Below, in pieces: positions 293-43,342 of a DNA stretch of 64,000 nt. The DNA comes from Paraspadella gotoi (taxonomy: Eukaryota > Animalia > Chaetognatha). The position numbers and the translations under genes are program-made. The first letter of the stretch is position 1; each line of letters starts with the position of its first letter. Under the pieces are notes generated by a model, which saw only the letters and a program-made list of their open reading frames with translations, ran no database searches and was not told the DNA's origin. The DNA lies in the NCBI GenBank assembly GCA_051294375.1, contig CM119268.1, positions 4,082,404-4,146,403 on the forward strand, given 5' to 3'.

Positions 293-368
293 TGGCGCCC
301 AATGTGGGGCTCGAACCCACGACCCCAGGATTAAGAGTCCTGTGCTCTACCGACTGAGCTAACCGGTT
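293..368 (-). tRNA. tRNA-Lys-CTT: tRNA-Lys(CUU)-like sequence with genome-encoded CCA; probably a retrocopy or extended PBS rather than a canonical gene
   Basis: Reverse complement reads AACCGGTTAGCTCAGTCGGTAGAGCACAGGACTCTTAATCCTGGGGTCGTGGGTTCGAGCCCCACATTGGGCGCCA (76 nt). Intact D arm, anticodon arm CAGGA-CT-CTT-AA-TCCTG and T arm GGTTCGAGCC. Positions 1-2 (AA) cannot pair with C72/G71, and there is no downstream oligo-T. Confidence 0.9.
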
Positions 369-5121: not shown

Positions 5122-6951
5122 TGTATCATATATTCTTCATTGGAGAAGCATTGCTGGAGGAAGATATCAACAAAGATGACAGCTCAGGCAATAAATGATG
5201 ATGATGATTGAAGATGTTGCAGAATTTTAAATTTTTTTATCTCACACATATGGAAATGTTTGAAAAATCCTTAAAAAAATTGATTCATGATATAAAAATA
5301 TGGAGAGAGTGGCTTGGAGAAGAGTCAATAATCACTTTTTCATATATTTTAATATACACACAATTATTTTCTCCCTTGAAAAAAACAAATGGGTTATTTT
5401 TTTAAAATTTAACTTTAATTAAAATTTTAAAAGTGAGGAATGAACAACATTATACTAATGAACATTTATGTAATAAAAAATTTTATAATAAATTTTACAA
5501 TTTACGCAGTAGGCCATATTTTTACTAGTACTAAACCAATAAATGTTAAAATTTATAAACAGTTTTTTCTAAGATTTTTTTGCAGATTTGGATTCGTCAT
5601 AAAAAGTTTATAAAAAGAAATATAACTCTTTTTTGAAAAATTCCTTCATTAAATGGGTCAAAAATTAAAAAAAGCTATATTTTAAGCTGAAAATAAATTT
5701 TTATTATATTAAATATAGTTTTTGTAATTTTTAACCCACTTAATGAAAGAATTTTTAAAAATGATTTATATTTTCTTTTATTAACTTTTGACGTGGAATT
5801 CAAATCTGCAATCCAAATTAAGAAAAGCCTTTTTAAAATTTTTTTATTTTATAAGGATAGTACTAAATATAATATAGCCTACTGCAAAAATTAAAAAACA
5901 TAAAATTAATATTTTTTACAAATTAATGTTCACTGATGGCATGTTGTTCATAATTAACTTTTAGAATTTTCGTATGTAACTTTCACTACGCCTTATTCTT
6001 CATTATAATAAAAAAAGAGACTTACCAGTTCTTTTTTTCAAATACTATCAGGAGCACTATGAACTAATGATTTTTTGATAATTCCATTGATGGAAACATT
6101 TTACAAAAATTATTTCCACTATTTCCCAATCCATATATGTCAAACAAAGCCACAAACTTTTTTGGAGGTGAAGATGGATTTGATTTGTTTCCAACATTTT
6201 TTTCTCTCCTGAGAAGTTCAATTCATCACCCTCTGACATGTCAAATAATTTTTTTCCTCCTTTGAAATCTTTTACTTCTTCTCCATTTGATAAATTTAAT
6301 AAGGATAAAGATTTTCAAAAGGCCAAACCACATGTAAATCAAGATATTCCTCAAAAAAAATTTTTTCCCTCTACTGGGAATTCTAAATCATCTCTGTTGG
6401 ATCAATTTAAGAAATCTACTGATATCAGTGATTCATGAATCACAATATCACTAATCAACAAGAGTTTTCTCCTTTAAAACCATATTCTTCCTCCACCTTA
6501 ATTGATAAAATTAACGATTTTCAAAACACCAATCCACATTTGAACAAAAAATATGATTCCTCTAGTGAGAATTCAAAAATAATTTCTCCCAGATAAATTA
6601 AAGAGATCTAATGATATCATTGATTCACATGAGATTCCTCCTTTTTCTCCCATCTCATTGATAAATCAAAGAATTAAAAAAACAATGAAAAATGTAAAAA
6701 ACACCAAAATTCAAGAAATGGAAAAAAGGTCATTATAAATGTGATAATATTTGTATGTGGAAAATTGTTCTAAGAAATTTTCAAATATTAATGCAAAGTT
6801 GATTCATCACTGGAAGAAATTTACTCCATTTTAAATTTGTTTGATAATTTCATAATATATGAGTGCTGCCTCAATTTAATTTTCACTAGTAAGATGGAAA
6901 AAATGAAACATTTTACCAAATCTCATGCCTTATTGACGGATATTTATTGCA
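5122..6951 (+). repeat. Near-identical duplicate of 8767-10636
   Basis: About 1.8 kb colinear match differing mostly by 1-nt indels. This copy ends next to the N gap at ~6967. Confidence 0.9.
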
Positions 6952-9066
6952 TACTCTCTCTCTTTTNNNNNNNNNNNNNNNNNNNNNNNNNTTAGTCGGA
7001 GTTCTGGAAAAAAAAATATATTTCACTATTACTCATGAGTGATGGGGAGGGATTGACTTGAAATTTTGTAGTGTGGGTAGAAAAAGTGTGTGATATTAAA
7101 CTGGAAATCAAGTTTCGATGGAATCGTTTGAGTGGAAATGCAGTTTAAATGAAAAAAAAAAGTGTTTCACTAATTGATTATGCTTTTAAAATTAAATGTT
7201 AAATGCAAATGTATTAATTAATCAAATAATTAATAAGTTAATTAAAACAATAAGTCAATTAATTAATCCAATAATTAATTAATCAGTCAATTAATCAAAA
7301 CAAAATTTTGGATCAAAATAATTAATTAATTGCCTAATTAATTAATTAACTTGAATTAATTTATTAATTAATTACGATAATGATAGTTGGCAGATCCGTC
7401 ATTGTTTGCTCAAACTTGTTGTTACAACGTGTTATGATCTGTTAAGATCACAAATTGAAAGTCAGAAAACATTACCGAAGAATTATTCATCGTATTAGCT
7501 TATTACCGCTTAATTATTGTAGGCAGATCCGACATTGTTTGTCCAAACTTAGATTATTCTTTTCTCGAAACAATTTCATTCTTTCATTCTGCTCAATCAT
7601 TAGCCTATTTATTAATATTGATACAATAAGCAACTAGTTAAAAACACTTAATTGAAACACCTTAAAGGCAAGGAGAAATGTTAATTGTCGCGGCTTAAAG
7701 ATAGCGGGTGCCGACCAAATTCAAATTTTAATGGGAACAGTATGTAAACTAATCCATTATTGCTATGTAATATTTGTATTTAAAATATTTTTTGTCAAAA
7801 ATGTTCCGAACCGAGAGTAATTCGCTAATTGAATATTATGTAATATTGCTCTATATAATCGTCAAAATTTTTTTGGATATTTTAAGTTTTTTTAATTGAT
7901 TCTGATAGAGCTAAAAAGTTAAGCAAAAAATAATTACAGACTTTTTAAAATCGCTGTTTTATTACTAAAAATTAATAAAAACTGCTAAAATCATTGGATG
8001 TGATGATGATGTTTTTAAAGTTTTTCCCAATTTTGACCCACTAATCATCAAAATATTGAAAAAAGAATTATACTTTGTTAGACAACTTTTATAAGCTATT
8101 CTGAATCTGCTTTTAAAATCAAATTTGAAAAAAATTTTTGACATTTCCTATCTATAAATAAATATCGAAAAATTAATTACTAATGCTTCTAGCCATTTAG
8201 AAAATTTTGCGTCATTGAAAGTTTTCTCAGAATATGTTGAAGTTTCATTTTGGAAAGGTTCCCAAATCAAACTTCTGACCCACCCCATTGACAAAGTTTG
8301 GCTCTATTAAAGAGGCAACTGACTTTTCCTCAATTTCAAACATTAAAAATAAGCCAGATATTCGCTTTCTGTCATGAATCGGGAAACTTGGGACTCAGAT
8401 GTCGAATCTCTGCCTTCGAACGTTGTTTTGTCTCCCAAAAAAATTAAAAGCAAAAAACCTACAGCTTTATATAATTTAATTTGTACTAAATTTTTTGTTG
8501 AAATCATTTTGGCCGAGTGCTTAGCGCGCCGAATTTCAATGTTACGAAAAGGTTTCAGTTCAAATCTGGCTGAAGCATCTTTTTACAATAAGTTCTGATT
8601 GTCCCAAAATTGCGTCGTAGAGCAATGGCTTACGAAGGGGAGTAGCCATATTTCTTGACTCGATAACAAGGACAAAAACCTCCTCTTTAAAATTCTCATT
8701 TGTACTCGAGTTACAGAGCTTTGCCGTCTCAGAAAATTCTAGACGGATGCTACTGTATCTAGTATATGTATCATATATTCTTCATTGGAGAAGCATTGCT
8801 GGAGGAAGATATCAACAAAGATGACAGCTCAGGCAATAATGATGATGATGATTGAAGATGTTGCAGAATTTTAAATTTTTTTATCTCACACATATGGAAA
8901 TGTTTGAAAAAATCCTTAAAAAAAATTGATTCATGATATAAAAATATGGAGAGAGTGGCTTGGAGAAGAGTCAATAATCACTTTTTCATATATCTTTAAT
9001 ATACACACAATTATTTTCTCCCTTGAAAAAACAAATGGGGTTGTTGTAATTCAAAGCATTCTTCAT

Positions 9067-9678
9067 TAAGGCGTAGTAAATTTTTTAAATTTAACTTTAA
9101 TTAAAATTTTAAAAGTGAGGAATGAACAACATTATACTAATGAACATTTATGTAATAAAAAATTTTATAATAAATTTTACAATTTACGCAGTAGGCCATA
9201 TTTTTACTAGTACTAAACCAATAAATGTTAAAATTTTAAAACAGTTTTTTCTAAGATTTTTTTGCAGATTTGGATTCGTCATAAAAAGTTTATAAAAAGA
9301 AATATAACTCTTTTTGAAAAATTCCTTCATTAAATGGGTCAAAAATTAAAAAAAGCTATATTTTAAGCTGAAAATAAATTTTTTATATATTAAATATAGT
9401 TTTTGTAATTTTTAACCCACTTAATGAAAGAATTTTTAAAAATGATTTATATTTTCTTTTATTAACTTTTGACGTGGAATTCAAATCTGCAATCAAAATT
9501 AAGAAAAGCCTATTTTAAAATTTTTTTATTTTATAAGGATAGTACTAAATATAAATATAGCCTACTGCAAAAATTAAAAAACATAAAATTAATATTTTTT
9601 ACAAATTAATGTTCACTGATGGCATGTTGTTCATAATTAACTTTTAGAATTTTCGTATGTAACTTTCACTACGCCTTA
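9067..9678. mobile_element. Palindromic MITE / fold-back DNA element (left-truncated copy at ~5400-5995)
   Basis: Termini TAAGGCGTAGT...ACTACGCCTTA. Internal inverted matches such as atgaacaacat/atgttgttcat, gcagtaggc/gcctactgc and tttgcagatttg/caaatctgcaa. Confidence 0.7.
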
Positions 9679-9749
9679 TTCTTCATTATAATAAAAAAAG
9701 AGACTTACCAGTTCTTTTTTTCAAATACTATCAGGAGCACTATGAACTA

Positions 9750-10700
9750 ATGATTTTTGATAATTCCATTGATGGAAACATTTTACAAAAATTATTTCCA
9801 CTATTTCCCAATCCATATATGTCAAACAAAGCCACAAACTTTTTTGGAGGTGAAGATGGATTTGATTTGTTTTCCAACATTTTTTTCTCTCCTGAGAAGT
9901 TCAATTCATCACCCTCTGACATGTCAAATAATTTTTTTCCTCCTTTGAAATCTTTTACTTCTTCTCCATTTGATAAATTTAATAAGGATAAAGATTTTCA
10001 AAAGGCCAAACCACATGTAAATCAAGATATTCCTCAAAAAAAATTTTTTCCCTCTACTGGGAATTCTAAATCATCTCTGTTGGATCAATTTAAGAAATCT
10101 ACTGATATCAGTGATTCATTGAATCACAATATCACTAATCAACAAGAGTTTTCTCCTTTAAAACCATATTCTTCCTCCACCTTAATTGATAAAATTAACG
10201 ATTTTCAAAACACCAATCCACATTTGAACAAAAAATATGATTCCTCTAGTGAGAATTCAAAATAATTTCTCCCAGATAAATTAAAGAGATCTAATGATAT
10301 CATTGATTCACATGAGATTCCTCCTTTTTCTCCCATCTCATTTGATAAATCAAAGAATTAAAAAAACAATGAAAAATGTAAAAAACACCAAAATTCAAGA
10401 AATGGAAAAAAGGTCATTATAAATGTGATAATATTTGATGTGGAAAATTGTTCTAAGAAATTTTCAAATATTAATGCAAAGTTGATTCATCACTGGAAGA
10501 AATTTACTCCATTTTAAATTGATTTTGATAATTTCATAATATATGAGTGCTGCCTCAATTTAATTTTCACTAGTAAGATGGAAAAAATGAAACATTTTAC
10601 CAAATCTCATGCCTTATTGACGGATATTTATTGCATTTCATGTAAATCTATTAAATTTTTAAATATGAATTTTAAAAGTAGAAATAAAGACATGGAGAGC
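9750..10700 (+). pseudogene. Degenerate gene with S/P/F/N/K-rich repeats followed by C2H2-like zinc fingers, antisense within XKR intron 2
   Basis: 171-aa ORF with recurring FSP/FFP-LK-S-SS-L-DK motifs. Across frameshifts it continues as YKC-DVENCSKKFSNINAKLIHHWKK and YECCLNLIFTSKMEKMKHFTKSH. Confidence 0.45.
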
Positions 10701-10828
10701 AATTGCAATCTAAAATGGAAAATTGGTATGAAAATGTATACAAGGTGTATAAAAAAGAAATGAAATATGGGGATAAAAATTGAGAAGATGACGGATACAA
10801 GGGGAAGGATTTTCAAGAAAATAAATGT

Positions 10829-11482
10829 TGAAGAGACAGTAATTATTGTTGTGTTAGTGACAGAACTGTTCAATGTAAGCAGTCCCTGAGCTTCGGATCA
10901 GGCAGTAACACCGTGTTACAGGCGGGTTAAGCGCCCCGTCTCTCTTAACTGCTAGGCGGCCACCGGTCTAGAACCCCAGACCTTTGGATTGGGAGGCAAA
11001 TGACTTGCATCCGGCACCAAAGGCCGCTGATGAATGGTTGGTGGATTTTAGTCCAGCATACATCCCCCCCCTCCCGTAGGGAGAAGTCTGTTGCGTCTCT
11101 TCAGTGAATTGTTGTTGGTGGAAAGTTTGTTACCAAGTTGAGGCATGTCACCTGATGTGTTGTTGGCAGAAAGTAGATTGCCAGGTTGAGGCATGTTGCC
11201 TAAAATTGTTGTTGTTGCTGTTTTGTTCAGAAGTCGGGCTCACCAATGAAGAGACAGTAATTATTGTTATGTGTTAGTGACAGAACCATTCAATGTAAGC
11301 AGTCCCTGAGCTTTGGATCAGGCAGTAACACCGTGTTACAGGCAGGTTAAGCGCCCCGTCCCTCTTAACTGCTAGGTGACCACCGAGCTCGAACCCCCGG
11401 ACCTTTGGGTTGGGAGGCGAATGACTTGCCTCCAGCACCAATGGCCGCTGATGAACGGTCGGTGCATTTTAGTCCACCATAA
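10829..11482 (-). mobile_element. TRIM (non-autonomous LTR retrotransposon) with a tRNA-like module in each LTR (Helenus/TRIMp3-like)
   Basis: Direct repeats 11247-~11482 and 10829-11062 (minus strand TGTATG...TCTTCA). PBS TGGTGAGCCCGAC at 11245-11233, 1 nt after the 5' LTR. PPT GGGAGGGGGGGGA at 11075-11063 abuts the 3' LTR. Flanking ATGT/ATGT is a candidate TSD. Confidence 0.88.
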
Positions 11483-12110
11483 TGTCAACATTGTTTTAAA
11501 GAAATAGGTGATGATAAAGAAAGTGTATTGGTTAAGAAAAAGATGGAGATTCTCATGAGTTTGAACAAATCTTGATCACAGAAAGAACAACACAGAAGGG
11601 GAAGAATATAGAAATACGTTTTCAAGAAAAAGAAATGTAACAACATATTAAAAGTCTTTTTCTAATGTTCAAGGAAAGATGAAAGAAAGATTGAGTACTC
11701 AGTCGCCTTGGCCGCCGCCGCCGCCACCGCCGCCACTCCGGTCATTGACGCTGTGTTCTCAAGACTTAGTCATAAACAAATTCGTTGTGAAAATCTAAAT
11801 TCTCTGTTTCATCTAAGCAAAATTTATCATAATTTGATGTTCTGACATAATATAAGGGAATGTCCAACAAGATTGGGGGAGCGGACCGACGAACCGACAA
11901 AGTAAGCAGATCCGGCTAAAAATTCTTTTTGCACCTGAAAGTAGACTTCAATACCAAATTTTGAATCCCTGCCAATGTTGCTTTTAATTTTATAGTAGAT
12001 ATCTAGTTAAAGAAATAGAAACTATGCAATTCATTAACTATTAGATTGATTATTTGTTCTCTACAAGTATTAACTTATCGAATAATGGTGTCTCAAAAAA
12101 ATATCCATAC

Positions 12111-12609: not shown

Positions 12610-13142
12610 TGAGGCGACTTACTAGAACCTTCCTTTCTCCTCTCCTTCAGTCCAATTGTTCACCACAGTCACTTTGCCCTAGATTTGGCAATGACCTTAG
12701 ACCTGACTGGACATAGTTATAGGACAATGGCAAACGTAAGGTCAAGCTGGTTCGGGCATTGATTGTGGATCTGGAGAGAGCCTGTCTCACTCCTTTTTCC
12801 ACCTCTTTACAATGTCATAATATTTCTCCTTCATCTTGTTTTTTTATTTTTGGTATTTTTTCTCTTCAAAATTGGTGAACCCTGACGTGATCCAATGTAG
12901 AAGATAAAAAATACAGAAAATAAAAGACGGGATGAAGGAGAAATATTGTGATGTTGTAAAGAGATAGAAAAAGGAGTGAGACGAGCTCTCTCCAGATCCA
13001 CAAACAACTCCCGGACCAACTTGACCTATTACTCTGTCCGGTCAATGTCAAATCTAGGGCAAAGTGACCGAGGTGACGGTCTGGCCTGAAGGAGAGGAAA
13101 GAGGAAGGTTCTATGAAGAGAGACCGGTCTTAAGTCACCTAA
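12610..13142. mobile_element. Inverted pair of LTR-like repeats around a tRNA-Trp PBS
   Basis: Arm 12610-~12870 (starts TGAGGCGACTTA) is the diverged reverse complement of 12896-13142. The spacer contains TGGTGAACCCTGACGTGAT (12873-12891). ATAT on both flanks. A further fragment of the arm lies at ~16193-16245. Confidence 0.75.
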
Positions 13143-15870: not shown

Positions 15871-16121
15871 ATCACGTCGGGCTCACCAGTGTGGATAAGG
15901 CGCTAAGTGGGCTGAAGATGACTATCGGTAACTTCTATAACCCCCTTTAGTAGCCATGGAACGGGTCCTGGGTTTGGAGCCAGGCTTGAGGGTTTGCCAC
16001 GCCCTCAAGGCGGCTTACGGCCGTCCTCACACTTCCCGCAGGGTAGGTACTGGGTTGGGATTGAACCCGGTACCTAGTGGTCATGAGCTGATGGCTTTAC
16101 TCAATGAGCCACCGGGTCACA
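15871..16121 (-). mobile_element. 232-bp LTR (TGTG...CACA) with tRNA-Met-like head, followed by an 18-nt tRNA-Trp PBS
   Basis: Minus strand TGTGACCCGGTGGCTCATTGAGTAAAGCCATCAGCTCATGACCACTAGGTACCGGGTTCAATCCC...TTATCCACA (16121-15890), a 1-nt spacer, then TGGTGAGCCCGACGTGAT (15888-15871). Confidence 0.75.
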
Positions 16122-16583
16122 ACTGAAAGTGTCATGCTTATTGGCGGGGGGAACCTAGGCAATGCCCGACTACATATGTATCAATACAAATTGAGACCCG
16201 TCTCTCTTACAAGAACCTTCCTTTCTCCTCTCCTTCGGGCCAGTTGGGCACATTCTATGTAAAAGAACTACAAAGCTGGAACATGAGATAAGTTTTTCTT
16301 GCACCGGATTATTGATGGAAAAACTTAAAGTTACTCTTTCAGTATCAGTTTCTCAGCCTATCGAAATGGCTCAGTGGCTTAAAAATCTTTTACAATCATT
16401 ACTTTGCATTCTATTTGGTTGCTTGTGGGAGCCACTGAGGATACAAAACCCCTAAAGTTTGTTGGATTTATAAAAATGCTCCAGATGCTCCAAGCCTCAA
16501 GCAATGACGGTGTTCCCTGCTATTTCCTAATAATACATATATAAACCATGACTTTACATTTCCCAACTCGGGTTAAAACTCAC

Positions 16584-17062
16584 AATGGATCTGCCATGCA
16601 CTGCTCATGCGTGCCACTAGTCAAGGAAACTACACTCGCTGCGGCTTGAACAATTAATTGGGGAAATGACTCCAGCAGAATGTGAAGCTGCTCCAATGAT
16701 CCCAGGCTGAGTAACTTGGTTGGCAATGACGCTGCCAATTCAGCACGCCGTGTGTCCAGATAATGATCGATCATAAAGATCGAATTACCCAAACCAAAAA
16801 AAGTGACAGTTATGGTTGCCATCTTCCGCCAGGCGCCATTCCATATGCGTGTATACATCGGCGCTTCTTTCATAAGGTGGCGCCAGACCCAAATGCCAGA
16901 AATAATACTGTGCGTTATCAGAATGCCGCTCATTATGACACCAAGATATTGCTCGACATAAAAAGGTTTATTTAAAAATGTTATCGTTGTCTGAATGTCA
17001 GTAAAAACGTCGGCGACATTGAGCGAGACCAAGAAGATCAAGAATATCGGAGAGGCATCCAT
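16584..17062 (-). CDS. First coding exon of XK-related (XKR family) membrane protein
   Basis: ATG at 17062 (MDASPIFLIFLVSLNVADVFTD...). XK hallmarks D-V-x-T-D in TM1 and LLESFPQLIVQ. Donor CCATT|GTGAGT at 16584/16583, phase 2. Confidence 0.88.
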
Positions 17063-17142
17063 TTTTTTTAATCTGCGGACACTCTTCAAACTTAAATTGC
17101 GCACATTCTACGCACAGTACAATAACTACAATAATGATCTGC

Positions 17143-17772: not shown

Positions 17773-18399
17773 CTTTCTTACAATTGAAACATTCTTTAAA
17801 ATATTATACCACTTCATAGAGAAGGAAGCCATCAGGTACTTAGGGAGTGAATAAACAAGACTGTTAGAGAGCTTTCAGGGACCTCTTATGTCATTATCTT
17901 GTAAGAGTGATGGAGGCCTTAAACCACCAAATCCTGTCCAAAGTCAGGGGAAAGATTGCTTATTTATTAAATGAATGGATAATTTTTATATTGGTTGTAC
18001 ATATTATAAAAAATTATGAATGATAAATATAGATTTTGAAATCGGAAATCCACAATGGTCAGAAAGAAAATGGAGAAGAAACTTATTTTTGAAGATCTGC
18101 AAAAAACCGAGGATACTTCTTTGCCTTAATTTATGGGCATTGTAATTATATTTTTTTAAAACAAGAATGGTAATTTAAATGCGTTGCGCCGCAGTGTCTG
18201 CCTTATCAGGTGTATTTCTTGTGACTTAACATGAAACAATGTGACATGACTACAATAACTTTCTTAGCCCGTATATTTCTGACATGCGCTGCATCAAAAT
18301 TTTGTTTTTCATTCTTTAGTTTCCTGAAGGCGGCGCGAACAATCCCTTAGATTTGATGTTTTATTCTGTCTTTAGCAACCTACCATATGCAAGTTATGA

Positions 18400-18527
18400 G
18401 CATTTTTAATGTAAGTGGGACAGAACAACGGACAGACATACCGACCAATGGACCAACAGATCGACCGACCAACCAAAAAGTGACTCATAGAGTTGCTCCA
18501 CGATTACTCGTGGCGCAACTAAAAATA
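18400..18527 (-). mobile_element. HINE/DINE-1-like (Helentron-associated) element end; related pieces at ~11865-11922, 30343-30420, 54980-55065
   Basis: GAC(A/C/G) tetranucleotide-like tract followed by a short hairpin and a (cg)actaaaaa terminus, recurring at several sites. Confidence 0.4.
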
Positions 18528-19818
18528 TGACTAGGTAATAAGGACTTTTGGGTGTCCTTATTTTTTTGCACAAGTCTGTTGATGATGCGCATAAATTGGT
18601 ACGTAATTCGGCCCGGTTAATAAGAAGAAAAAAGTGATTTTTGATTAATTCTGAGTTTGGAACTTAATCATTGACGCGCCTAAACTTATTTCCTAAATTA
18701 GCAACAAAATCATTAGACAGTAGAAATCCCCGAGTTATATCATGTTATATCATGACACTTTCGGGTCGGTGAAACAAAATTGTTACTACGTCGATCTGTC
18801 TGTGAGTCTGTGAGGATATATCATTTTAGCTTTATGCAAAATAGTATTAAATATTTTTTAACATTGAATACGAATTGCATTTGATTATAGCTTTTTAGTA
18901 ATTTAATCTAAATTTATTCTATTATTAATTTTTAAAAAAATTTAAAAATATTTACCAACTAGGATTTTTCACTATGTTTAATAATTTACTTACAAGTTAT
19001 AACTACTTTCCTAATTAATTTTTCTTCGCCATTAGCAAATTATCAACATGGATTCTGGCCTCACTTTTCAGCTCTCTCTCGTTGCGTCAATTCTAAGGAA
19101 ATTATACCAAACTAATAAGTACTAAAAAATTTTACATCCAAAAGTCTGCAATCTACATATATATATTTGATCAAAGTAATACTTTTAAAACGTTTAATTA
19201 CAAAATATGAAATTAATTTAATGAAGCTGGTGTTGAGAGAAATTTTATATAATTCATTTTATCAATTTCTTTGACTTGATTGATCTCACCGACTTGATTT
19301 ATTGAATAAATTTTATTGATTTAATTGACTGACAAATGATTTTATGACATAACATAAACGGGCTACATTTCCATTTTGGAATTTTAATCTATTATTATAC
19401 ATAGATATAGCTTACTGGTGCCCAGTATTGTATAAAAAAAAGATTTACCAATAATTTTTATGAGTTTTTACTTTAGGGATCGAAATATGTTCAACAGAAA
19501 ACCAGAGGTAAGATGAGAATTTGTTACGTGATAAAGGGAGACGGAGTGAACGAGTGTCGAAGCATCGAACTCAACGATGAAGCCAGTATAAGCCTTGGAT
19601 CTAAGAGGTCCTAGGGGTAGCGGAGAAGACAAAGGAAAGAAATCTGGCAAAGAGAAAAAAAAAGGGAGGAAGGAAGGAAGGAAAAGGAAAGGAAGGAAAA
19701 CAGGAAAAGAGAAAAAGCAAGGGATGAGTCTTGGAGGATGGGATTTAAGCCCTCCCGGATGTTGAGGTCTTTCGAGGTCAGTCGATTCTTCGGATCGAAC
19801 GAGTTTCACGAGCGGAGG

Positions 19819-20270
19819 AGGAAACAGAGTGGAAAAGACAAAGAAATAAAAAAAAGGAAATATGGAGGAAAATGGAGGAAAGAAAAGGGGGAAAAGAGGA
19901 AACAGAATGGAAGAGACAAAGAAATAAAAAAAAGAAATATGGAGGAAAAGGGAGAAAAGGGAAGAGTGAAAAGAGGAAACAGAGTGGAGAAGACAAAGGA
20001 ATAAAAAAAAAGAAATATGGAGGAAAATGGAGGAAATAAAAGGGGGAAAAGAGGAAACAGAGTGGAGAAGTCAAAGGAATAAAAAAAAGGAAATATGGAG
20101 GAAAATGGAGGAAAGAAAAGGGGGAAAAGAGGAAACAGAATGGAAGAGACAAAGAAATAAAAAAAAGAAATATGGAGGAAAAGGGAGAAAAGGGAAGAGT
20201 GAAAAGAGGAAACAGAGTGGAGAAGACAAAGGAATAAAAAAAAAGGAAAGATGGTGGAAAAGGGAGAAAA
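19819..20270 (+). repeat. Purine-rich ~78-bp minisatellite (about 6 units)
   Basis: Units begin AGGAAACAGA(G/A)TGG at ~19819, 19897, 19974, 20052, 20130 and 20207. Confidence 0.85.
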
Positions 20271-20305
20271 ATTAGAGGAGAGGATAAGAAAAAGGGGAAG
20301 GATGA

Positions 20306-20576
20306 TAAATTATTTCTTTTTAAATTTTTAACATTTTTCTTTTTCTCTTATAGTACGTACAACTTGTTTTTTCTCATTTTCCCCTTTTTTTAACTTTCCT
20401 CCAATTTTTCTTATTTATAATTCAATTGTCTTTTCCAAAAGTAGTGGAAAAGATAATTGAAAATTATATAAGAAAGAGTGTAGGAAAGTTAAAAAAAGGG
20501 GAAAATGAGAAAAAACAAGCTGTACGTACAATAAGAGAAATAGAAAAATGTTAAAAATTTAAAAAGAAATAATTTA
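20306..20576. repeat. Near-perfect inverted repeat, ~130-bp arms, loop under 10 nt (second copy ~33207-33477)
   Basis: aaattatttctttttaaatttttaacatttttct...ttttcca / tggaaaa...agaaaaatgttaaaaatttaaaaagaaataattt. Confidence 0.9.
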
Positions 20577-23080
20577 AAAAGTGAAAAAAATAGGGAAACG
20601 AAAATATAAACAAATGCTAATGCATTTTAAATACGGAAAAAAGAAGTAAAATATATAAAAAAAATATAAAGAAACAAAGAACATAAAAAATAAATAACTA
20701 AGAACCATGTCAAATTAAAAATCCCACTGATTCTTAATTACCTTTCATTTTTCACGTTTCCGAGTCGTCGCTCAAACTTATAATATTATTCTTTTCTTTG
20801 GCTAATTATCTTTTTTTCGTTTTTCCTATTTAAGCGTCGGATCTCCCATCGGCATAGGACGGGGCGTCAGAGCGAGGAAAAAGAAAAGAAAAGAAAACAA
20901 GAAAAGATCGAAAAGGGAGGAAAAAGAAAGAAAATAAAGGGAAAAAAAGGAAGAAAGAAAAAAAAAGAAAATAAAAAAGGAAGGTAAATGAAAAATGAAA
21001 AAAAGAAAAAAATAAGTAAAGAAAGAAATTAATAAATAAAAAAGAAAAGAGGAAAAAAAAAAGAAAGAAAGATTAGAAAGAAAAGAAATAAAAAAAAACC
21101 AAATGAAGAAGGAAAAGAAAAAAAAAGAAAATGTGACGAAAGAAAGAAGAAAAATAAGAAAATAATGATAAAAAAAATAAAGAAAGCAAGCGGAAAATTA
21201 AAATAAAGAGAGAGAAAGAGAAAAACGTCTTTTAACAAGTGTGAAGAGACAGAAAAAAAAAAAAGAAACCGAAAAGAAAGAAAAAAAAAGGAAAGAGAAA
21301 GGTTGTGATGGAATCGCGAACTGGGGACGAAAATGAGAATGAAAATGAAGATTAAAATGATGATGAGCGGAAAAAAAATGAAATGAGGAAAAAAAAAAAG
21401 ATCAGAGATGCAGAAAAATTCAGGCGCAGGCCTGGGATTGATGGCGGGAAACGAGACTCCTTTCCTTTTCTATTTTTAAATTTTATTTTATGAAACAAGG
21501 GGTTTTTGAAAAACGTGAGGGGAGTAAGGGGTTTTTTTTTGAAAGTAGGGGAAAGTGTTTTTCATTTTTATGATTTCAACAAGGTGAGGCTATGTTTTTA
21601 TGCTCATTGGGGGTCGAGAAAGACGATTAAAATTGAGAAAGAATTGCGCGAAGTGTAGTTAGAGATTAAAAGATTTGAAATGAACATGAGAAAAAAAGAA
21701 AAACAAAGAGAGAGAGAGAGAGACGGAGAGATAGAAGAGAAGACGAGAGATGAATGATGAGAGTAGAGATGAGAGAAGTGTCAAATGGCCTTTATGATAT
21801 GGCAAGAGATAAGATGATGTTTGATTGGGTGACACTAATCGGCAGGCTTAGGAAAGGAGTAAGTAAATGAGGAGAAAAAATGTGGCAAAGGTCAGGAGCG
21901 TGAGAACGAGTGAGTGGCGTGAGTAGCGTGAGTGGCGTGATCGATCACGGGAAAATACGCAATTAATAAAGTCTATATGTGATCAGATTAGAGAGAGAAA
22001 ATAAAGAAACCGTGGCGCGTGGTTAGTTCTAAGGCGCGTGGTAAGTTCTAAGGTGCGAAAGGTCAGTCGGCCTCAGCGGGAGAGAGAGAGAAACTACCTC
22101 GGGTCGATAGGTGAAGAGATGAGACGGAAAAAGGAAAAGCCGCTTCAGTCGAACGGAAAGGGTAAGTGAGATCGCGGGTGAGCAAGTTTATCGGGGTAAG
22201 TCTCGCTTCGTTTGTCGCTCGACGTTATAGGGCCTGACGAGGCGATCAGGCGTTAACAGGCGATGACTGAACAATCAGTGGCCAGAGAGAAAAAGGAGAA
22301 AATGTGATACGACGTCGAGAAAATCTGTAGCCGACAGGCGTTGATCTGACAAAATTAGAAGGTGACAGGCATCCCCCTGACCAAATGATAAGCCGTGATA
22401 AAGCATGACAGCTGACAGGCGCGGCCCCGACAAAATTCATAGCTGACATTCGTTGCCCCAACAAAATGAGGTTTCGTTCCGACAAAATAGGTAGCCAACA
22501 GGCCCTGACAAATAGGTAGCCAACAGGCCCTGACAAAGTTCATAGCGGATGTAATCAGTCGCCAACAACTGAACCGAGAAGAATTTAATATTCAAAAAAT
22601 AGTTGTAAGCTGACCTCACTAATTAATCAAAAATAAATGGCAGATTTTTCTGTCATCTTTTTAAATAAATCACTCGATTCTTTTTTAAATGAAAAATAAA
22701 AGTTTTCCCAACGTCTCTCTCTCTCTCTCTTTCTCTTTCTCTCTCTCTCTCTCTTTTTTCGGTGACCGTCTCCATCTCCATCTCGCACGCGCGTTGAAAT
22801 TTCTTATTCACTCGAAATGATGGATGGCTTTGTCCGCTTTTTTTATCAAAGAGGGATGTAAATAGGAAAGAGTCAAGCCACCCGGATGAAATAGAGAATC
22901 GAAGGAGACCTTATCCCTCCATATCCAGGCGTAGTCTGTCCAGTATACTGAATACATTCAAAAAGCGGAGTCAGGATTGTTCAAAACTTATTAATTGAAC
23001 GAATCGATATTTGTACCCATTTATCGTTTGAATGTTGTCAAAAACGGAATTGATCAAGAATATGTGTACGAACAATTACA

Positions 23081-23377
23081 AGGGCTCTCTTTTCCTACAG
23101 TGCCCCAAATGTAAAAATATATTTATATTTACAACACAATCCCTAGACCTATCCCTAACCATAATCCTTACAACTAACCTACTCCTGGAATATTGAACCC
23201 TAACATCTAACCTTAATACCTAATCACTAACCCAAATACCTAACCCTAATCATTAACCAAATCCGTAATCTTAATCACTAATCTAATCATTAACCTCAAA
23301 CCTAATTTATAATTTAAAAAAAATTAATCTAAATCCGAATTTGAAATAAAATGGGCGTTCTGGTAAAATAATGCCAA
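23081..23377 (+). mobile_element. Dispersed element with short inverted termini and a degenerate telomere-like (TAACCY)n core; copies ~35943-36243, 47309-47573, 55271-55760
   Basis: Left end GCTC(TC)TTTTCC..A.TGCC(C)A and right end CCGAATTT...GGCGTTCTGG.AAAA are shared by all copies, with taaccc/taacct/taatct repeats between them. Confidence 0.7.
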
Positions 23378-23707
23378 AAATGGAACGAAAATCTGTTCGA
23401 ATTTAGTCTAATGTAGTAAATCAAGTTATTTTTGCAATTTTCATACTCAACATATATAAGTATTGAGAAAAAAAAAAAGAAAAATAACACAAAATCCCGG
23501 ATGTAATAGAAAAGAAGTAGAAACCCGGATGTAATTGAATCAAGAAAGACAAAAACAACGGGGAAAACGAATTAGCTTTTTTTTTTCCTTTTCCTCTTTT
23601 AGCGATAATATCTCTAAAAGAGGGAAAAAAAGAGGAAAGAGAAAAAAAATGCTCGAGGGTGAAAAACGTAGTAATGGAGTGGAAACCACAGAAAGAGAGA
23701 CGTAGAT

Positions 23708-23779
<72 letters not shown>

Positions 23780-24320
23780 AGAGTAAATGACGAAGCAAAA
23801 ATAGAAAAAAAAACACTTTTTTTTTCAAGTTTAGTTAATTTTTTTCTCCTTTTGGCTTTTGAGTTGTTCTTTGCCTTTTTTTTTTCAAAGTGAGAAATTA
23901 GTTTCACACCTTGTCCAATGTCAACGCCCTCATCCTCTTCTCCCCTTTCCATCTTTATCTCGCGTCTACACAGTGAGAAACATAGAAATGTACAATTGCA
24001 CAAATGTAACATTGTACTCGGGGGGATATTGTCTAAGATGAATGTTTATTTTTTAAGTTTAATTTGTCATCTTTACTTTTATACTTTGGTTAAACTAATC
24101 AGAGTTACAAATGTTTTACCTTAGACCTAATCTAACCATGTACTCGGGGGGGGGGGATTCTCCATGACGAAGGTTTAATTTTTAAGTTCAATTTGTCATT
24201 TTATCATTAATTTAATATTTTGGTTTAACTAATGAAAGAAAAGCCAATCGGGATGGAGAGAAGAAAATTAGTTGGCATCTCTCGGAAAATAATCAACTAC
24301 GAACGATCCTGACGATAGAA

Positions 24321-24361
<41 letters not shown>

Positions 24362-25901
24362 AACGACCCCTACAATGTTAATTCTTTATAAATAATTGCA
24401 ACGACATATCACGCCTATTACTTTAGAATCTCGAGAAAGTGCAAACCTAATTATAAATTTTAAAAATGAAAATAAACGAAATTGTTGCTGTTTTAACTTA
24501 AGCGACGAACAAAAACATTGACAACATGAACGACAACGACTACGACGACGACGACGACGACGACGTTAATATCGGGGACAACAACAACAACAACAACGAC
24601 AAGCCTCGCAGGTGAAACAACGACCGAGTTTTAATTTTCTTGTTAACTCCTCTCTTTTCCTTTGACGTTCGTTTCCCGCGGGGAATTTTCATTCATTGGC
24701 TTCCATTAGCGTCTCTCTCTCTCTCTCTNNNNNNNNNNNNNNNNNNNNNNNNNNNNNNNNNNNNNNNNNNNNNNNNNNNNNNNNNNNNNNNNNNNNNNNN
24801 NNNNNNNNNNNNNNNNNNNNNNNNNNNNNNNNNNNNNNNNNNNNNNNNNNNNNNNNNNNNNNNNNNNNNNNNNNNNNNNNNNNNNNNNNNNNNNNNNNNN
24901 NNNNNNNNNNNNNNNNNNNNNNNNNNNNNNNNNNNNNAAGTCGATCTGCGGCGTCGAAGTCATTTTACGTTCGATCGATCGATGAGTCGAAGACCGCGAG
25001 AGTGAGCCACGCCCACGCCGCCACCTCAATGACGCGCGAGACTTTTCATTCATTCATTCATTCATTCATNNNNNNNNNNNNNNNNNNNNNNNNNNNNNNN
25101 NNNNNNNNNNNNNNNNNNNNNNNNNNNNNNNNNNNNNNNNNNNNNNNNNNNNNNNNNNNNNNNNNNNNNNNNNNNNNNNNNNNNNNNNNNNNNNNNNNNN
25201 NNNNNNNNNNNNNNNNNNNNNNNNNNNNNNNNNNNNNNNNNNNNNNNNNNNNNNNNNNNNNNNNNNNNNNNNNNNNNNNNNNNNNNNNNNNNNNNNNNNN
25301 NNNNNNNNNNNNNTCATTCATTCATTCATTCATTCATTCATTCATTCAATAATACATATATTTATTAATTTATTTTTTCGTTTATTATTTCATTAATGCA
25401 TAGCATACAGTTATGCATTATTTTATATTCATTGTAATTTTTTTTGCCAAACCATCGATATTTCTTTTTTTTAAAGACTTTTTATCTAACTTTGTTAGTC
25501 ATTTAACTTCCATGTTTAGTAATTAAATTTTCGATACAAAACGGAAATAATCAATTCCTTATCGCTTTACCTTCCACTCGACGCCATTTTTTTCTTTCTT
25601 TTCAATTTCGCCTTCGAGTTGTGATTCTCCAGCGAATTCCATCTCGACTAAAACTTTCCTAAGTCTTCTCTCCATCGCTTTCACTTAATCTTTTTTTTTT
25701 GGTCCTCTTTTCCGATAGCGCCTCGTTTCAACTTAAATTCGGAAATAAATTTCTTTTTAGGTTAAATGATTAGAAATTGGATAGGTCGGTCAAAGTAAGA
25801 TGTTGGTCGTAGAATAGAGTGAATCTCGATTGGGATTCATGATTTGAGGTCCTGGCATATCTTTATGCTTACAACAAGGTATACTATATGACATAATAAA
25901 G

Positions 25902-30690: not shown

Positions 30691-33600
30691 ACAGAGAGAG
30701 ATTGAATAACAAGACTGTTAGAGAGCTTTCAGGGAGCTCTTCTGGTCATTATCTTGTAAGAGTGATGGAGGCTTAAACCACCAATCTGTCAAAGTCAGGG
30801 AAAGATAGTTATTTATTAAATGAATGGATAATTTTATATGGTTTGTAGCTATTATAAATTAGTGAAATGATTAAATACTACGATTTTGAAATGCGGAATC
30901 CGAAACTGGTCAGAAATGAAACTGGAGAAGAAATTATTTTGAAGATCTGCAAAACGAGGATATCTGTCTTTGCCTTAAATTGGGCATTGTAAGATATTTT
31001 AAAAAGCAAGATGGTATATTTAAGATTGGCGTTTGCCGGCGCAGTGTCTGCTTATCAGGGTTTTCTTTGACTTAACATGAACAACTTGAATGACTATAAA
31101 TAACTTTCTTAGCCGTAATATTTCTGACATGCGCTGGCATTCGAAAAATTTTGTTTTTCATTCTTAGTTTCCTGTAGAAGGCGGCGCGAAGATCCTTAGA
31201 TTTGATGTTTTAAATTCTGTCTTTGACTACATATGCAAGTTTATGAAGCTTTTTAAATGTAGTGGGACAGAACAACGGACAGACAGTACCGAAATGGACC
31301 AACAGATCGCCGACCAACCAAAGTGACTCATTGATGTTGCCCACGATTACTCGTGGCGCAACTAAAATGATGACTAGGTAATGAAGGAAGTTGCTTTGGG
31401 TGTCTTGATTTTTTTTGCACAGTCTGTTGATCTTTGATGCGCATTAAATTGGTACGTAATTCGGCCACGGTTAATAAGGAAGGAAAAGTGATTTTTGATT
31501 AATTCTGAGTTTGAATTAATCTTGACGCGCTAAACTTATTTCCTAAATTAGCAACAAAAATCATAGACGTATGAAATGCCGCGAAGTTATATCATGTTAA
31601 TCATGACACTTTTCGGGCGGTGAAACAATTGTTTACTACGGTCGATCTGTTGTGAGTCTGTGAGGAATATAATCATTTTAGCTTATGCAAATAGTATTAA
31701 ATATTTTTTAGACATTGGAAGTACGAATGCATTTGATTATAGCTTTTAGTAATTAATTCTAATTTTTTTAATTTTCTATTATTATTTTTAAAAGAAATTT
31801 AAATATTTACACGTAGGATTTTCACTATGTTTAAATAATTTACTTACAGAGTTATAACTACTTCCTAATTACTTTTTTCTTCGCCATTAGCAATATCAGC
31901 AATGGATTTCTGGCCTGCACTTTTCAACTCTCTCGTTGCGGTCAACATTAAGCAAATTTACAAACTAATAATTACTAAAAAATCTTTACATCCAAAGTCC
32001 TGCAATCTACATTATATTAATAATTTATCAAAAGTATACTTTTAAAACGGTTTAATTACAAAAATATGAAATTAATTTTCATGAAGCTGGTGTTGAGAGA
32101 TAATTTATAATAATTCATTTTAATCGATTTCTTTTGACTTGATTGATCTCACCGACTTGATTATTGAATAAATTTTATTGATTTAGATTGACTGACAAAT
32201 GAATTTTGATGACAAACATAAACGGGCTACATTTCATTTTGGGAATTTTTAATCTATTATTAGTACAGTAGATATAGCTTACTGTGCCCAGATTGTATAA
32301 AACAAGATTTACCAATAATTTTTATTTGAGTTTTTGATCTTTAGGGAATCGAAATATGTTCAGCAGAAAACCAGAGGTTAAGATGGATTTGTTAACGTGA
32401 TAAAGGGAGACGGAGTGAACGAGTGTCGAATCATGAACTCAACGATGAAGCCAGTATTAAGCCTTGATCTAAGAGTCCTAGGGTAGCGGAGAAGACAAAG
32501 GAAAGAAATTGGCAAGAGAAAAAAAGGGAGGAAGGAAGGAAGGAAAAGGAAAGGAAGGAAAACCAGGAAAGAGAAAAAGTCAAGGATGAGTCTTGGAGGA
32601 TGGGATTTAGCCTCCCGGATGTGAGGCTTTCGAGGTCAAGTCGATGTCGGATGGAACGAGTTCACGAGCGGAGGAGGAAACAGAGTGGAAAAGACACAAG
32701 AATAAAACAAAGAATAGGAGGAAAATGAGGAAAGAAAGGGGGAAAGAAGGAAACAGAGGAGAAGACAAAGAATAAAAAGGAATATGGGATGAAAGGGAGA
32801 AAAGGAAAGGGGAAAGAGAAGACAGAGTGGAGAGACAAGGAATAAAAAAAAAGGAAGATGGTGAAAGGGAGAAAGGAAAGGGGGAAAAGGAAGAACAGAG
32901 TGGAGAAGAAAAGGCATAAAAAAAAAGGAATAGGAGGAAAATGGAGGAAATAAACGGGGAAAGAGGAAACAGAGTGGAGAAGTCAAAGGAATAAAAAAAG
33001 GAATATGAGAAAATGGGAGAAGAAAAGGGAAAAGAGGAAACAGATGGAGAGACAAGAAAAAAAAAGAAAATATGGAGGAAAAGGGAGAAAGGAAGAGTGA
33101 AAAGAGGAAAAAGAGTGGAGAAGAACAAAGGAATAAAAGAAAAGGAAAGAATGTGGAAGAGGGAGAAAAATTAGAAGGAGAGGATAAGAAAAGAGGGGAA
33201 GGATGATAAATTATTTCTTTTTTAAATTTTTAACGATTTTCTTTTCTCTTATAGTACGTACAACTTGTTTTTTCTCATTTTTCCCCTTTTTTTAACTTTC
33301 CTCCATTTTCTCTATTTATATATTCAATGTCTTTTCAAAAGTAGTGAAGAAAGATAATTGAAATTATAGTAAGAAGAGTGTAGGAAAGTTAAAAAAAGGG
33401 AAAAGAAAGAAAAAACAAGCTGTACGTACAATAAGAGAAATAGCAAAAATGTAGAAAATTTAAAAAGCAAAAATTTAAAAAGTGAAAATAAGGGAAACGA
33501 AAATTAAACAAATGGCTAATGCATTTAAATACGAAACAAAGAAGTAAAAATATATAAAAAATATAAAAGAACAAGAAATAAAAAATAAATACTAAAGACC

Positions 33601-34589
33601 GATTGTCAAATTTAAATCCACTGGATTCTTAATACTTCCATTTTTTTCCACGTTTCCGAGTCGCGCTCCACACTTATAAACTAATTATTCTTTCTTTGCT
33701 AATTATCTTTTTTTCGTTTTTCCTATTTAAGCGTCGGATCTCCATCGGCATAGGACGGGCGTCAGAAGCGAGAAAAAAGAAAAGAAAAGAAAAACAAGAA
33801 AAGATCGAAAAGGGAGAGAAATAGAAAGAAAATAAAGGGAACAAAAAAAGGAAGAAAGAAAAAAAAGAAATAAAAAGGAAGGTAATGAAAATGAAAAAAG
33901 AAAAAAATAAGTAAAGAAAGAAATTAATAAATAAAAAAGAAAAGAGGAAAAAAAGAAAGAAAGATAGAAGAAAGAATAAAAAAAAACCAATGAAGAAGAA
34001 AAGAAAAAAAAAAAATGTGACGAAAAAGAAGAAAAATAAGAAAATAATGAATAAAAAAAATAAAGAAAGCAAGCGCAAATTAAATACGAGAGAGAAAGAG
34101 AAAAACGTCTTTAACAAGTGTGAAGAGACAGAAAAAAAAAAAAAAAGAGAACCGAAAAGAAAAGAAAAAAAAGGAAGAGAAAGGTTGTGATGGAATCGCG
34201 ACTGGGGAACGAAAAATGAGAAGAAAAGTGAATGAATAAAAATGATGATGAGCGGAAAAAAAATGAAATGAGGAAAAAAAAAAAAGATCAGAGATGCAGA
34301 AAAATTCAGGCGCAAGGCTGGGATTGATGGCGGAAACGAGACTCCTTTCCTTTTCTATTTTAAATTTATTTATGAAACAAGGGGTTTTGAAAAACGTGAG
34401 GGGAGTAAGGGGTTTTTTTTGAAAGTAGGGGAAAGTGTTTTCCATTTTATGATTTCACAGGTGAGGCTATGTTTTTTATGCTCAATGGGGGTCGAGAAAG
34501 ACGATTAAAATTTAGAAAGAATTGCGCGAAAGTGTAGTTAGAGATAAAAGATTTTGAAATGAACATGAGAAAAAAAGAAAAACAAAGAG

Positions 34590-34625
<36 letters not shown>

Positions 34626-36579
34626 GAGAGAGAGAGAGAGAGAGAGAGATGTGTTCATGGCCTTTATGATATGGCAAGAGATAGATGAGGTTTGATTTGG
34701 GTGATACCTGAATGCAGGCTTAGGAAAGGAGTAAGTAAATGAGGAGAAAATGTGTGGCAAAAGGTCAGGAGCGTGAGAAACGAGTGAGTGGCGTGAGTAG
34801 CGTGAGTGCGTGATCGATCGGAAAATAGCAATTAATAAAGTCTATATGTTGATCAGATTAGAGAGAGAAAATAAAGGAAACCGTGGCGCGTGGGTTATTC
34901 TATACGCGCGCGTGGTAAAGTTCTAAAGGTGCGAGAGTCAGTCGCCTCAGCGGGAGAGAGAGAGAAACTACCTCGGTCGATAGGTGAAGAGATGAGACGG
35001 AAAAGGAAAGGCTTCAGTCGAACGGAAAGGGTAAGTGAGATCGCGGTGCGAAGTTTATCGGGGTAAGTTCTCGCTTCGTGTTTGTCGCTCGACGTTATAG
35101 GGGGGCCTCGACGAGGCGATGCAGCGTTTAACAGGCGATGACTGAACAAATCGTGGCCAGAGAGAAAAAGGAGAAAGATGTGATACGAGTCGAAGAAAAA
35201 TCCTGTAGCCGACAGGCGTTGATCTGACAAAATTAGAAGGTGACAGCACCCCCATGACCAAATGAATTAAGCGTGATAGAGCATGACAGTTGACAGGCGC
35301 GCCCGAAAAATTCATAGCTGAAATTCGTTGCCCCACAAATAGGTTCGTTCCGACTAAATAGGTGCTCAACAGGGCCCTGACAAATAGTAGCCAAAGGCCC
35401 TGCAAGTTCATAGCGGATGTATCATCGCCAACAACGAAGCGAGGAAGAATTTAATATTCAATAAATAGTTGTACAGCTTGACTCACTAATTATCATAAAT
35501 AAAATGGCAGATTTTTTCTGTCATCTTTAAATTAAAATCATGATTCTTTTTTTAAATGAAAAATAAAAGTTTCCCACGTCTCTCTCTCTCTCTTTTCTTT
35601 CCCTCTCTCTCTCGTCTCTTTTTTTCGGGTGACCGTGCCATCTCCATCTTCGCACTGCGCGTTGAATTCCTTATTCACATCGAATGATGGATGGCTTTGG
35701 TCGCTTTTTTTATAAAGAGGGATGTAAATAGGATGAGTCAAGCACCCGATGAATAGAGAACGAAGAGACCTTATCTCCCATATCGCAGCGTAGTCTGTCG
35801 CAGTATATGAATAACATTCATAAAAGCGGGTCAGGATTGTCAAAACTTATTAATTGAACGAATCGATATTTGTCCGCATTTATCGTTTGAATATGGTGTC
35901 AAAGACGGAATTGATCAAAGAAATATGTGTGAACAATTACAAGGGGTTCTCTTTTCAATACAGGCCCCAAATGTAAAAGTATATTATATTTACACACAAT
36001 CCCTAGACCTATTCTAACCATAATCCTTACAACTAACCTAATTCTCCTGGAATATTTGAACCCTAACATCTAACCTTTTAAACCTAAGCACTAACCCAAA
36101 TACCTAACCTAATGAATTAACGAAATCCGTAATCTTAATCAATAATCTAATCATTAACCTCAAACCTAATTTTGTAATTTAACAAAAAGATTAATCTAAA
36201 TGCGATTTGAAATAACATGGGCGTTCTGTAAATATAAGTGCCAAGATATGGAACGAAAATCTGTTCGATTTAGTTAATGTAGTAAATCAAGTATTTTTTG
36301 GCAATTTCATACTCAACATATATAAGTATTGAGAAAAAAACAAACGAAAAATAACACACACAAATCCCGGGTATAGAAAGAAGTAGAAAACCGGATAGTA
36401 ATTGAATCAAGAAAGACAAAACAACGGGGAAAAAGACGAATTAGCCTTTTTTTTTTCCTTTTCCTCTTTGCGATAATATCTCTAAAAAGAGGGAAAAAAA
36501 GAGGAAAGAGAAAAAAATGCTCGAGGGTGAAAAACTGTAGTATGAGTGGAACCACAGAGAGAGACAGAGCGAGAGAGAG

Positions 36580-36636
<57 letters not shown>

Positions 36637-40787: not shown

Positions 40788-41117
40788 GAGAAGAGAGAGA
40801 GAGATGAGAGAGAAGAGAGAGAGAGGCTCAGAGAGAGGAAACAGAAAGAGAGAGAGAAGAGATTATACTCTTTCATGTGTCAACCTTCTTAAACCAAAGT
40901 CAAACTATAGATGGCACTTCCACTACCATAATCCTTAATATTGAGTTTTTTTATTTTCTCTTCTTTCCCAGTTTTAAATCTTTATCATTTTTTTGATCTT
41001 CCGTCATCCCACGTGGGTCCACCCGCCCTAAATATTTCCTTACCCTTTCTTTTCCTACTTTCTCTGACCCAAAAAAAGTGGGCGGAGTCGGTTCAGCCGA
41101 TACCTCCACTTGAGGAG

Positions 41118-41199
<82 letters not shown>

Positions 41200-41325: not shown

Positions 41326-41367
<42 letters not shown>

Positions 41368-42522: not shown

Positions 42523-42554
<32 letters not shown>

Positions 42555-43286: not shown

Positions 43287-43342
<56 letters not shown>

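Follow-up and report, generated by a model that had tools for sequence, protein, structure and literature searches.

A candidate twister-type LTR retrozyme with tRNA-like heads in the chaetognath Paraspadella gotoi

The described elements with the closest layout are those of the Helenus/TRIMp3 group (PMC10886601): like the element described here, they are shorter than 1 kb, consist of two LTRs with no ORF, carry one tRNA-like A/B module in sense direction in each LTR and have a PBS for a tRNA 3' end, a PPT and, in the animal families, a 4-bp TSD. The Trp primer is common to the chaetognath element, Helenus-2_SyJa and Helenus-2_SyUm (PMC10886601). In comparison with Helenus, our element has a more degenerate tRNA module, TA...CA ends and a twister fold, and it has no T-run behind the tRNA module, whereas most Helenus LTRs inspected by eye have one (PMC10886601). 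Pol III transcription of Helenus is expected but not validated, and a string search of the paper's text for a mention of ribozymes found none (PMC10886601). The two wasp sequences Helenus-2_SyJa-LTR and Helenus-2_SyUm-LTR (PMC10886601, Data S1) have, by eye, a type III hammerhead core behind the tRNA head, with three helices and complementary loops.

Closest in predicted behaviour are the LTR retrozymes of plants (PMC4918200), which share with our element the non-autonomous nature, the dependence on Gypsy, one ribozyme motif per LTR, a PBS, a PPT, the 4-bp TSD and a non-coding interior, as well as a unit RNA (predicted in our case) that has no terminal repeat. Plant LTR retrozymes have a type III hammerhead, a tRNA-Met primer and circles of 600-1000 nt (PMC4918200), whereas our element combines a twister fold with a Trp primer and a tRNA-like head, and its predicted unit measures 420 nt. 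The described animal retrozymes have neither PBS nor PPT and consist of non-LTR tandem repeats (PMC7761336, PMC11722881, 10.64898/2026.07.22.740005). No animal LTR retrozyme and no twister LTR retrozyme was found in the literature searched, with most subscription papers and Repbase reports lying outside it.

With respect to the ribozyme-like fold, two systems are relevant. The type-P5 twister (RF02684; phage L001-L107) has the permuted order, UAA, GC, 8-nt L4 loop, two pseudoknots, P2, optional P3 and P4 in common with the fold described here; in contrast to the phage type-P5 twisters, our element has a 6-nt self-complementary link in the place of P1, a P5 helix of 7 bp and changed pseudoknot and P4-closing pairs. 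The T-variant twisters of Schistosoma Perere-3 (PMC8501958) share the presence in an animal retroelement, a weak P1 and a similar P3, but there the ribozyme is single and of type P1, and the non-LTR element that carries it at its 5' end is autonomous, with no LTR, PBS or circle. As for possible helpers, Gypsy elements of the CsRn1 clade are characterised by a tRNA-Trp PBS and a 4-bp TSD (PMC2582038), and both features are common to this clade and our element. The Gypsy type, the primer and the TSD make an animal host likely.

Architecture and family of the element

The element is a non-coding LTR retrotransposon of 653 bp. It is read on the minus strand of the window (the whole stretch of 64,000 nucleotides, or 64 kb, that was analysed), from 11481 to 10829, and 11481-11247 is therefore the 5' LTR. 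In this direction, the order is 5' LTR, one base, PBS, interior, PPT, two bases and 3' LTR, with ATGT on both sides (Table 1). Much of this agrees with the original prediction: the two LTRs of about 234 bp are direct repeats of very similar lengths, the PBS is of the tRNA-Trp type, and the PPT as well as the candidate 4-bp TSD are present at this copy. The interior is non-coding as proposed (there are no ORFs of at least 120 aa over the element), but its length is 186 rather than 184 bp if the LTR begins with TA. Two further details had to be corrected. The element ends at 11481 and not at 11482, because the ATGT copies occupy 10825-10828 and 11482-11485, and instead of the expected TG...CA termini, the loose ends of contigs in four public runs indicate that the family ends in TA...CA. 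The reference for the PBS match was the 3' end of the honeybee tRNA-Trp as printed by Kojima (PMC10886601); the PBS 13-mer recurs once elsewhere in the window, at 15888-15876.

Table 1. Window positions of the features found in the element and in the second LTR family
Feature	Position	Strand	Remarks
TSD, left copy	10825..10828	.	ATGT, from the sequence
TSD, right copy	11482..11485	.	ATGT, from the sequence
5' LTR	11247..11481	-	235 bp, TA...CA; ends from contig loose ends
5' LTR, tRNA-like module	11376..11448	-	acceptor-like arms 11448-11442 and 11382-11376; weak statistics
5' LTR, boxes	A-box-like 11440-11429; B box 11395-11385	-
5' LTR, type-P5 twister-like fold	11298..11373	-	P5 arms 11373-11367 and 11304-11298
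5' LTR, twister parts	L1' 11360-11356; linker 11355-11350; P3 11341-11323; P4/L4 11322-11305	-	linker 6 nt, palindromic
5' LTR, predicted cut	between 11349 and 11348	-	one pseudoknot pair broken at 11314
PBS	11233..11245	-	12 of 13 bases complementary to tRNA-Trp 3' end (PMC10886601, Fig. S2)
Non-coding interior	11076..11232	-	degenerate 48-nt tandem duplication at 11105-11200
PPT	11063..11075	-	13-purine tract, two bases ahead of 3' LTR
3' LTR	10829..11060	-	232 bp
3' LTR, tRNA-like module	10956..11027	-	acceptor-like span of 7 bp, 6 of them paired; B box at 10975-10965
3' LTR, type-P5 twister-like fold	10878..10953	-	two intact pseudoknots; cut predicted at 10929/10928
Predicted unit RNA	10929..11348	-	420 nt between the predicted cut sites
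Second-family LTR	15890..16174	-	TG...CA, high-copy; A box 16111-16100, B box 16067-16057
Second-family twister-like fold	16039-15961	-	predicted cut after 16017
Second-family Trp-type PBS	15871..15888	-	18 nt; first 13 bases identical to TRIM PBS; joined to Gypsy RT

An alignment of the LTR pair has 212 identical columns, 20 substitutions (13 of these transitions) and 3 internal gap columns, and the K2P distance is 0.092; this divergence may overstate the age of the copy, because many of the differences are, by eye, transitions at CpG sites. The differences are concentrated: 12 lie within the 73 bp of the tRNA-like module, and only 3 within 78 bp of the twister region.

Ten public runs of four studies contain part of the element. 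The family was surveyed in the assembled contigs of four public runs, using a 1.3-kb stretch around the element: 14,532, 2,650, 11,423 and 981 contigs match this stretch, and the summed contig depth, which is not a copy number, is about two to four orders of magnitude higher than at the flanks. At position 11247, 189, 86, 188 and 43 contigs of the four runs switch to unrelated AT-rich flanks, and at 11481-11483, 77+38+43 contigs of run X1 switch to unrelated flanks; since the counts of loose ends at both ends roughly balance, the outer ends of the family are assigned as TA...CA. The contigs of the family also cover the tRNA-like part, at lower depth and with more variation than the rest, and the one-off SINE insertion that the original prediction had considered as an alternative can be discarded. 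The element is almost certainly a member of a very large TRIM family. The 4-bp TSD was read at this copy, with none of the listed contigs spanning the whole element, and a search for the exact LTR-end/PBS pattern in metagenome contigs returned 0 loci.

Promoter-like head and twister-like fold of the LTRs

The A box, the B box and an acceptor-like stem are found in the LTRs where the original prediction had placed them, but the likeness to a tRNA is weak (ARAGORN and Rfam are both blank): ARAGORN detects only one tRNA in the whole window, the intact tRNA-Lys(CTT) gene at 293-368 (minus strand), and none in the element, and Rfam scans of the element find no tRNA either. A profile of 51 prokaryotic tRNAs matches the modules with E-values of 0.14 (5' module) and 0.037 (3' module), the training set being prokaryotic, and when each LTR is shuffled 2000 times, the combined score of A and B box is reached 37 times (5' LTR) and 124 times (3' LTR). 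GGTTC of box B is present in both LTRs, while box A (TRGCY and YGG in Helenus) is partial and degenerate. In predicted folds the outer acceptor-like stem is retained, and there is no cloverleaf. The CCC (Gly-like) anticodon loop of the original prediction is not borne out, as CCC does not form a loop in the predicted folds. A Gly identity was also considered and rejected as unsupported: none of eight Gly tRNAs is among the top five matches and CCC lies outside any loop. More than 90% of the contig depth has a base that improves the acceptor stem or the T-stem at positions 11021, 11377, 11386 and 10967, and about 94% has a non-canonical B-box base at 11390. The module is a worn promoter-like head rather than a tRNA, and, judging from its A and B boxes, it is likely to be a Pol III promoter.

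Elsewhere in the window, tRNA 3'-halves with a perfect B box are found at 43887-43949 and 41746-41774 (profile E-values 0.0013 and 0.068); they lie within a duplicated segment and are possibly the remnant of a SINE.

The earlier description of the LTRs named the tRNA-like module, and is incomplete in that it lacked the twister-like fold that sits directly behind this module in each LTR. The order in both LTRs is P5 arm, P2', G-A-N-G-G strand, 6-nt link, UAA, 3-nt P2 strand, GC, P3 hairpin, P4 with an 8-nt loop ending in AAGC and second P5 arm, and this order agrees with Table 1 of Liu 2021 (PMC8501958) and with Rfam Twister-P5 (RF02684). This table and natural phage twisters, fetched by a core motif, served as references; as a control, 20 of the 46 phage loci of an initial scan were submitted to Rfam, and 17 of these are Twister-P5. 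A strict descriptor of the fold recovers 40 of the 46 phage loci and neither LTR of this copy, because each LTR has one broken core pair. When one deviation is allowed, there are exactly three matches in 64 kb, at 11349, 10929 and 16017 of the minus strand: these are both LTRs of the TRIM and the LTR of a second family that is 4.4 kb away. All three have a 6-nt link, and the lengths of P3/P4/P5 are 6/5/7, 6/5/7 and 8/5/5 bp. With P3, P4 and P5 of at least 4 bp each, the descriptor, whose tolerance was chosen after the sequences had been seen, matches 0 of 4000 shuffles per LTR and on average 0.034 times in 204 shuffled windows; this average rises to 1.35 matches without the helix-length requirement. 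Allowing two deviations gives no further matches.

A covariance model built from nine phage twisters ranks the same three motifs first, with scores of 17.9, 12.0 and 7.8 bits (E-values 0.024, 0.49 and 4), compared with 43-48 bits for phage twisters and 8-9.5 bits for chance. Rfam scans of the element and the second LTR with E-values up to 10 returned only chance matches and no twister, the motifs being below the gathering score of RF02684; no hammerhead family was found in the element at this threshold. In MFE folds, P3, P4 and P5 are formed and the 8-nt loop is open.

Several defects of the fold belong to this copy. P2 of the 3' LTR is imperfect at 10941, and pairing bases at 10941 (P2) and at 10904 and 11324 (P3) are present in more than 90% of the summed contig depth; the unpaired bases at these three positions are private to this copy. 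The third P2 pair (11344), by contrast, is mismatched in about 85% of the contig depth. In phage, the 3-nt P2 strand is frequent, with full pairing in 66 of 71 distinct matches. Natural twisters tolerate defects in P1, P2 and P4 (PMC11662667, PMC5408937), and P1 is reported to be dispensable (PMC11662667, PMC5408937), while pseudoknot defects are harmful in high-throughput tests (PMC11662667); the 3' ribozyme could therefore still work, and the 5' ribozyme, with its broken pseudoknot pair, may be impaired. Taken as a family, the LTRs very probably contain a conserved twister-type fold, and it is quite likely that this predicted ribozyme actively cleaves.

A degenerate core pattern was found at four metagenome and three genome loci. 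Two of these seven loci (one sequence) fit a loose descriptor, none was scored at the match site by the twister model, and the six that were checked are without a long direct repeat; all seven were therefore treated as chance. Among the phage contigs, L095, L102, L092 and L093 each contain two to five type-P5 twisters in an array, and in most of these twisters P2 has three pairs.

A second LTR family and its Gypsy neighbour

The LTR with the third descriptor match has sharp ends: 103, 61, 119 and 25 contigs of the four runs end at 15890. Its tRNA head is clearer than that of the TRIM, with a profile E-value of 0.0011 and a score reached by only 2 of 2000 shuffles. The LTRs of the two families barely align (p 0.011 and 0.12), and of 13 core pairs, 4 have both partners altered between the families, among these 2 of 3 in the longer pseudoknot (a comparison of three sequences from two families). 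The pairing in P3 and P5 is kept with unrelated sequence.

The second LTR is joined through its 18-nt PBS to fragments of a Gypsy element, namely RT, RNase H and integrase end at 15902-14065. The whole arrangement at 16174-13554 (minus strand) is a chimera that consists of the second LTR, the Trp PBS, a Gypsy element that has neither gag nor protease and starts in mid-RT, its RNase H, an AT-rich insertion, the integrase end, a PPT and a different LTR from near 14110. The AT-rich insertion (14093-13879) is high-copy and lies within the Gypsy LTR, with a stretch of about 20 bp duplicated on its two sides (14110-14090/13878-13858). No TSD that closes the chimera was found; it could have arisen by plus-strand transfer from a small element onto helper DNA or by a later deletion. 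Common LTR or interior sequence of the Gypsy neighbour and the TRIM was considered too, and is unsupported beyond the PBS and a G-rich PPT.

Of the original interpretation, a non-autonomous, multi-copy LTR element that has the Helenus layout and depends on a Trp-primed Gypsy is supported. A CHCC Gag motif is present in 0 of 120 homologues; the three that were inspected begin at Pol, and the fragment in the window is likewise without gag.

Smaller pieces of the second family are present at other positions of the window: two 50-bp fragments (42232-42281 and 44398-44447) are 88-90% like the tRNA head and lie in a duplicated segment, and a 36-bp match (83%) to the LTR end at 45610-45645 has no detectable twister core.

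Predicted route of transposition and its alternatives

Double cutting would remove the terminal repeat that is needed for reverse transcription of LTR elements, a problem that plant retrozymes solve by circularising (PMC4918200); with a twister-like fold in each LTR, the likely route shifts from that of a linear TRIM RNA to that of a retrozyme. Our preferred reading, held with modest confidence, is a Pol III-driven LTR retrozyme: a doubly cut RNA of 420 nt that circularises and is copied by a Trp-primed Gypsy element; the circle route itself is predicted with the same modest confidence. Transcription by Pol III would start near 11448 from the internal A and B boxes and read through both LTRs. 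The single T4 run of the sense strand (11205-11202) is interrupted in more than 99% of the contig depth and private to this copy, and Pol III would therefore read through in the family form. The twister folds would cut U^A at the two predicted sites, which are 420 nt apart, and thereby remove the terminal repeat of a linear template. The resulting unit would circularise before reverse transcription; in folding predictions its ends are joined by P5, with a modest overall stability (z -1.7). Both double cutting and circles have been found in plant LTR retrozymes (PMC4918200) and there is a precedent for circularisation by RtcB (PMC7229834). The RT of the helper, primed by tRNA-Trp at the PBS, would pass more than once round the circle and so rebuild two LTRs, the PPT would prime the second strand, and the integrase of the helper would make the 4-bp TSD. 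The weakest step is that the stunted, palindromic P1 may limit efficient cutting to paired ribozymes, which would spare the monomeric circle.

The basis for this step is the 6-nt link that replaces P1, which is self-complementary in both families. None of 108 phage matches has a 6-nt link, the P1 link being 12-30 nt long in one set of phage matches and 8-26 nt in another, and about 5% of random 6-mers are self-complementary. The link could close as a single pair with a four-base loop, or it could form a duplex with its counterpart in the other LTR. In the axolotl, hammerheads with one pair closed by a palindromic tetraloop are far more efficient when they cut as dimers (PMC7229834). When the precursor is folded in a nested model, which leaves pseudoknots uncounted, an arrangement with swapped P5 is preferred (0.71, 0.88), only by 2.5 kcal/mol, and the palindrome duplex is disfavoured (probability below 1e-6, 11.6 kcal/mol above the MFE); a competing hairpin occupies the L1' strand in the predicted folds. 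Because the duplex is disfavoured and the gain from swapping P5 is so small, we propose only tentatively, and with some doubt, that the two LTR copies are an obligate ribozyme dimer that cuts out the 420-nt RNA and spares the monomeric circle. A natural dimeric twister, if true, would be a new ribozyme architecture.

Three other readings have to be weighed. The ribozyme could be active merely as a 3'-end former of a linear RNA. Pol III would start this RNA at the tRNA-like head of the 5' LTR, and transcripts that are left uncut there but are cut in the 3' LTR would have a terminal repeat of about 100 nt and transpose as an ordinary TRIM, with no circle. The family form has no T-run terminator, so that the RNA must be ended in some other way; Cassandra does move via a linear RNA that is made by Pol III and has a short repeat (PMC10886601); and a stunted P1 together with the competing hairpin could make cutting partial. 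We nevertheless consider this unlikely: the LTRs have the same sequence and the 5' copy, which is made first, should cut at least equally, and plant LTR retrozymes show both double cutting and circles (PMC4918200). Still less probable is a plain Helenus-type TRIM with an LTR derived from a SINE or from the twister-carrying 5' end of an RTE element, the fold now being an inactive relic. Two barely alignable families that keep the fold with compensatory changes in the pseudoknot speak against a relic, as do the breaks checked against the contig depth, which are private to this copy, and the type of the RTE twisters, which are P1, while the LTR fold here is permuted. The idea of a relic has some attraction, since Kojima proposes that Helenus arose when a SINE inserted into an LTR (PMC10886601), twisters do occur at the 5' end of RTE elements and P3 here resembles, by eye, the P3 arms of the S. 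mansoni twisters in Table 1 of Liu (PMC8501958); moreover, Rfam misses the motif and each of the three copies in the window has one broken core pair.

Finally, the element could be an ordinary Pol II TRIM with both the tRNA likeness and the twister likeness caused by chance. The blank results of ARAGORN and Rfam and the weak tRNA likeness in the shuffling test would fit, but three of three descriptor matches fall in LTRs behind a B box, at a background of 0.034 per shuffled window, and the tRNA head of the second family is significant in both the profile search and the shuffles; coincidence on both counts is highly improbable.

If the preferred reading is correct, the element would join the Helenus layout and the predicted behaviour of an LTR retrozyme, the tRNA origin of its head being weakly shown. 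A twister LTR retrozyme in an animal would add another class of ribozyme and another kingdom to transposition via RNA circles. It would also provide twisters with a defined natural role, tie Helenus to the retrozymes and explain how RNA ends are formed in a Pol III LTR element that lacks a terminator. Together with the wasp Helenus elements, the combination of tRNA head, interchangeable ribozyme and Trp primer would be a recurring animal design.

The surroundings of the element are microsatellite-rich and gapped. The window has four pairs of large local duplications with 85-97% identity: 5122-6952 / 8767-10636, 17842-24725 / 30697-37653, 40831-42644 / 42979-44810 and 53442-54760 / 62699-63996; some of these may be assembly artefacts. 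The pair closest to the TRIM (5122-6952 / 8767-10636) ends 190 bp short of it and therefore provides no empty site. Among the open frames, one of 456 aa has no homologue that could be found, and one at 16580-17107 (minus strand) has a weak XK-related Pfam match (E-value 0.0007) that is below the cut-off. Long palindromic elements of about 500-550 bp, of the foldback or MITE-like type, are present at 5421-5970, 9103-9653 and 12618-13118.
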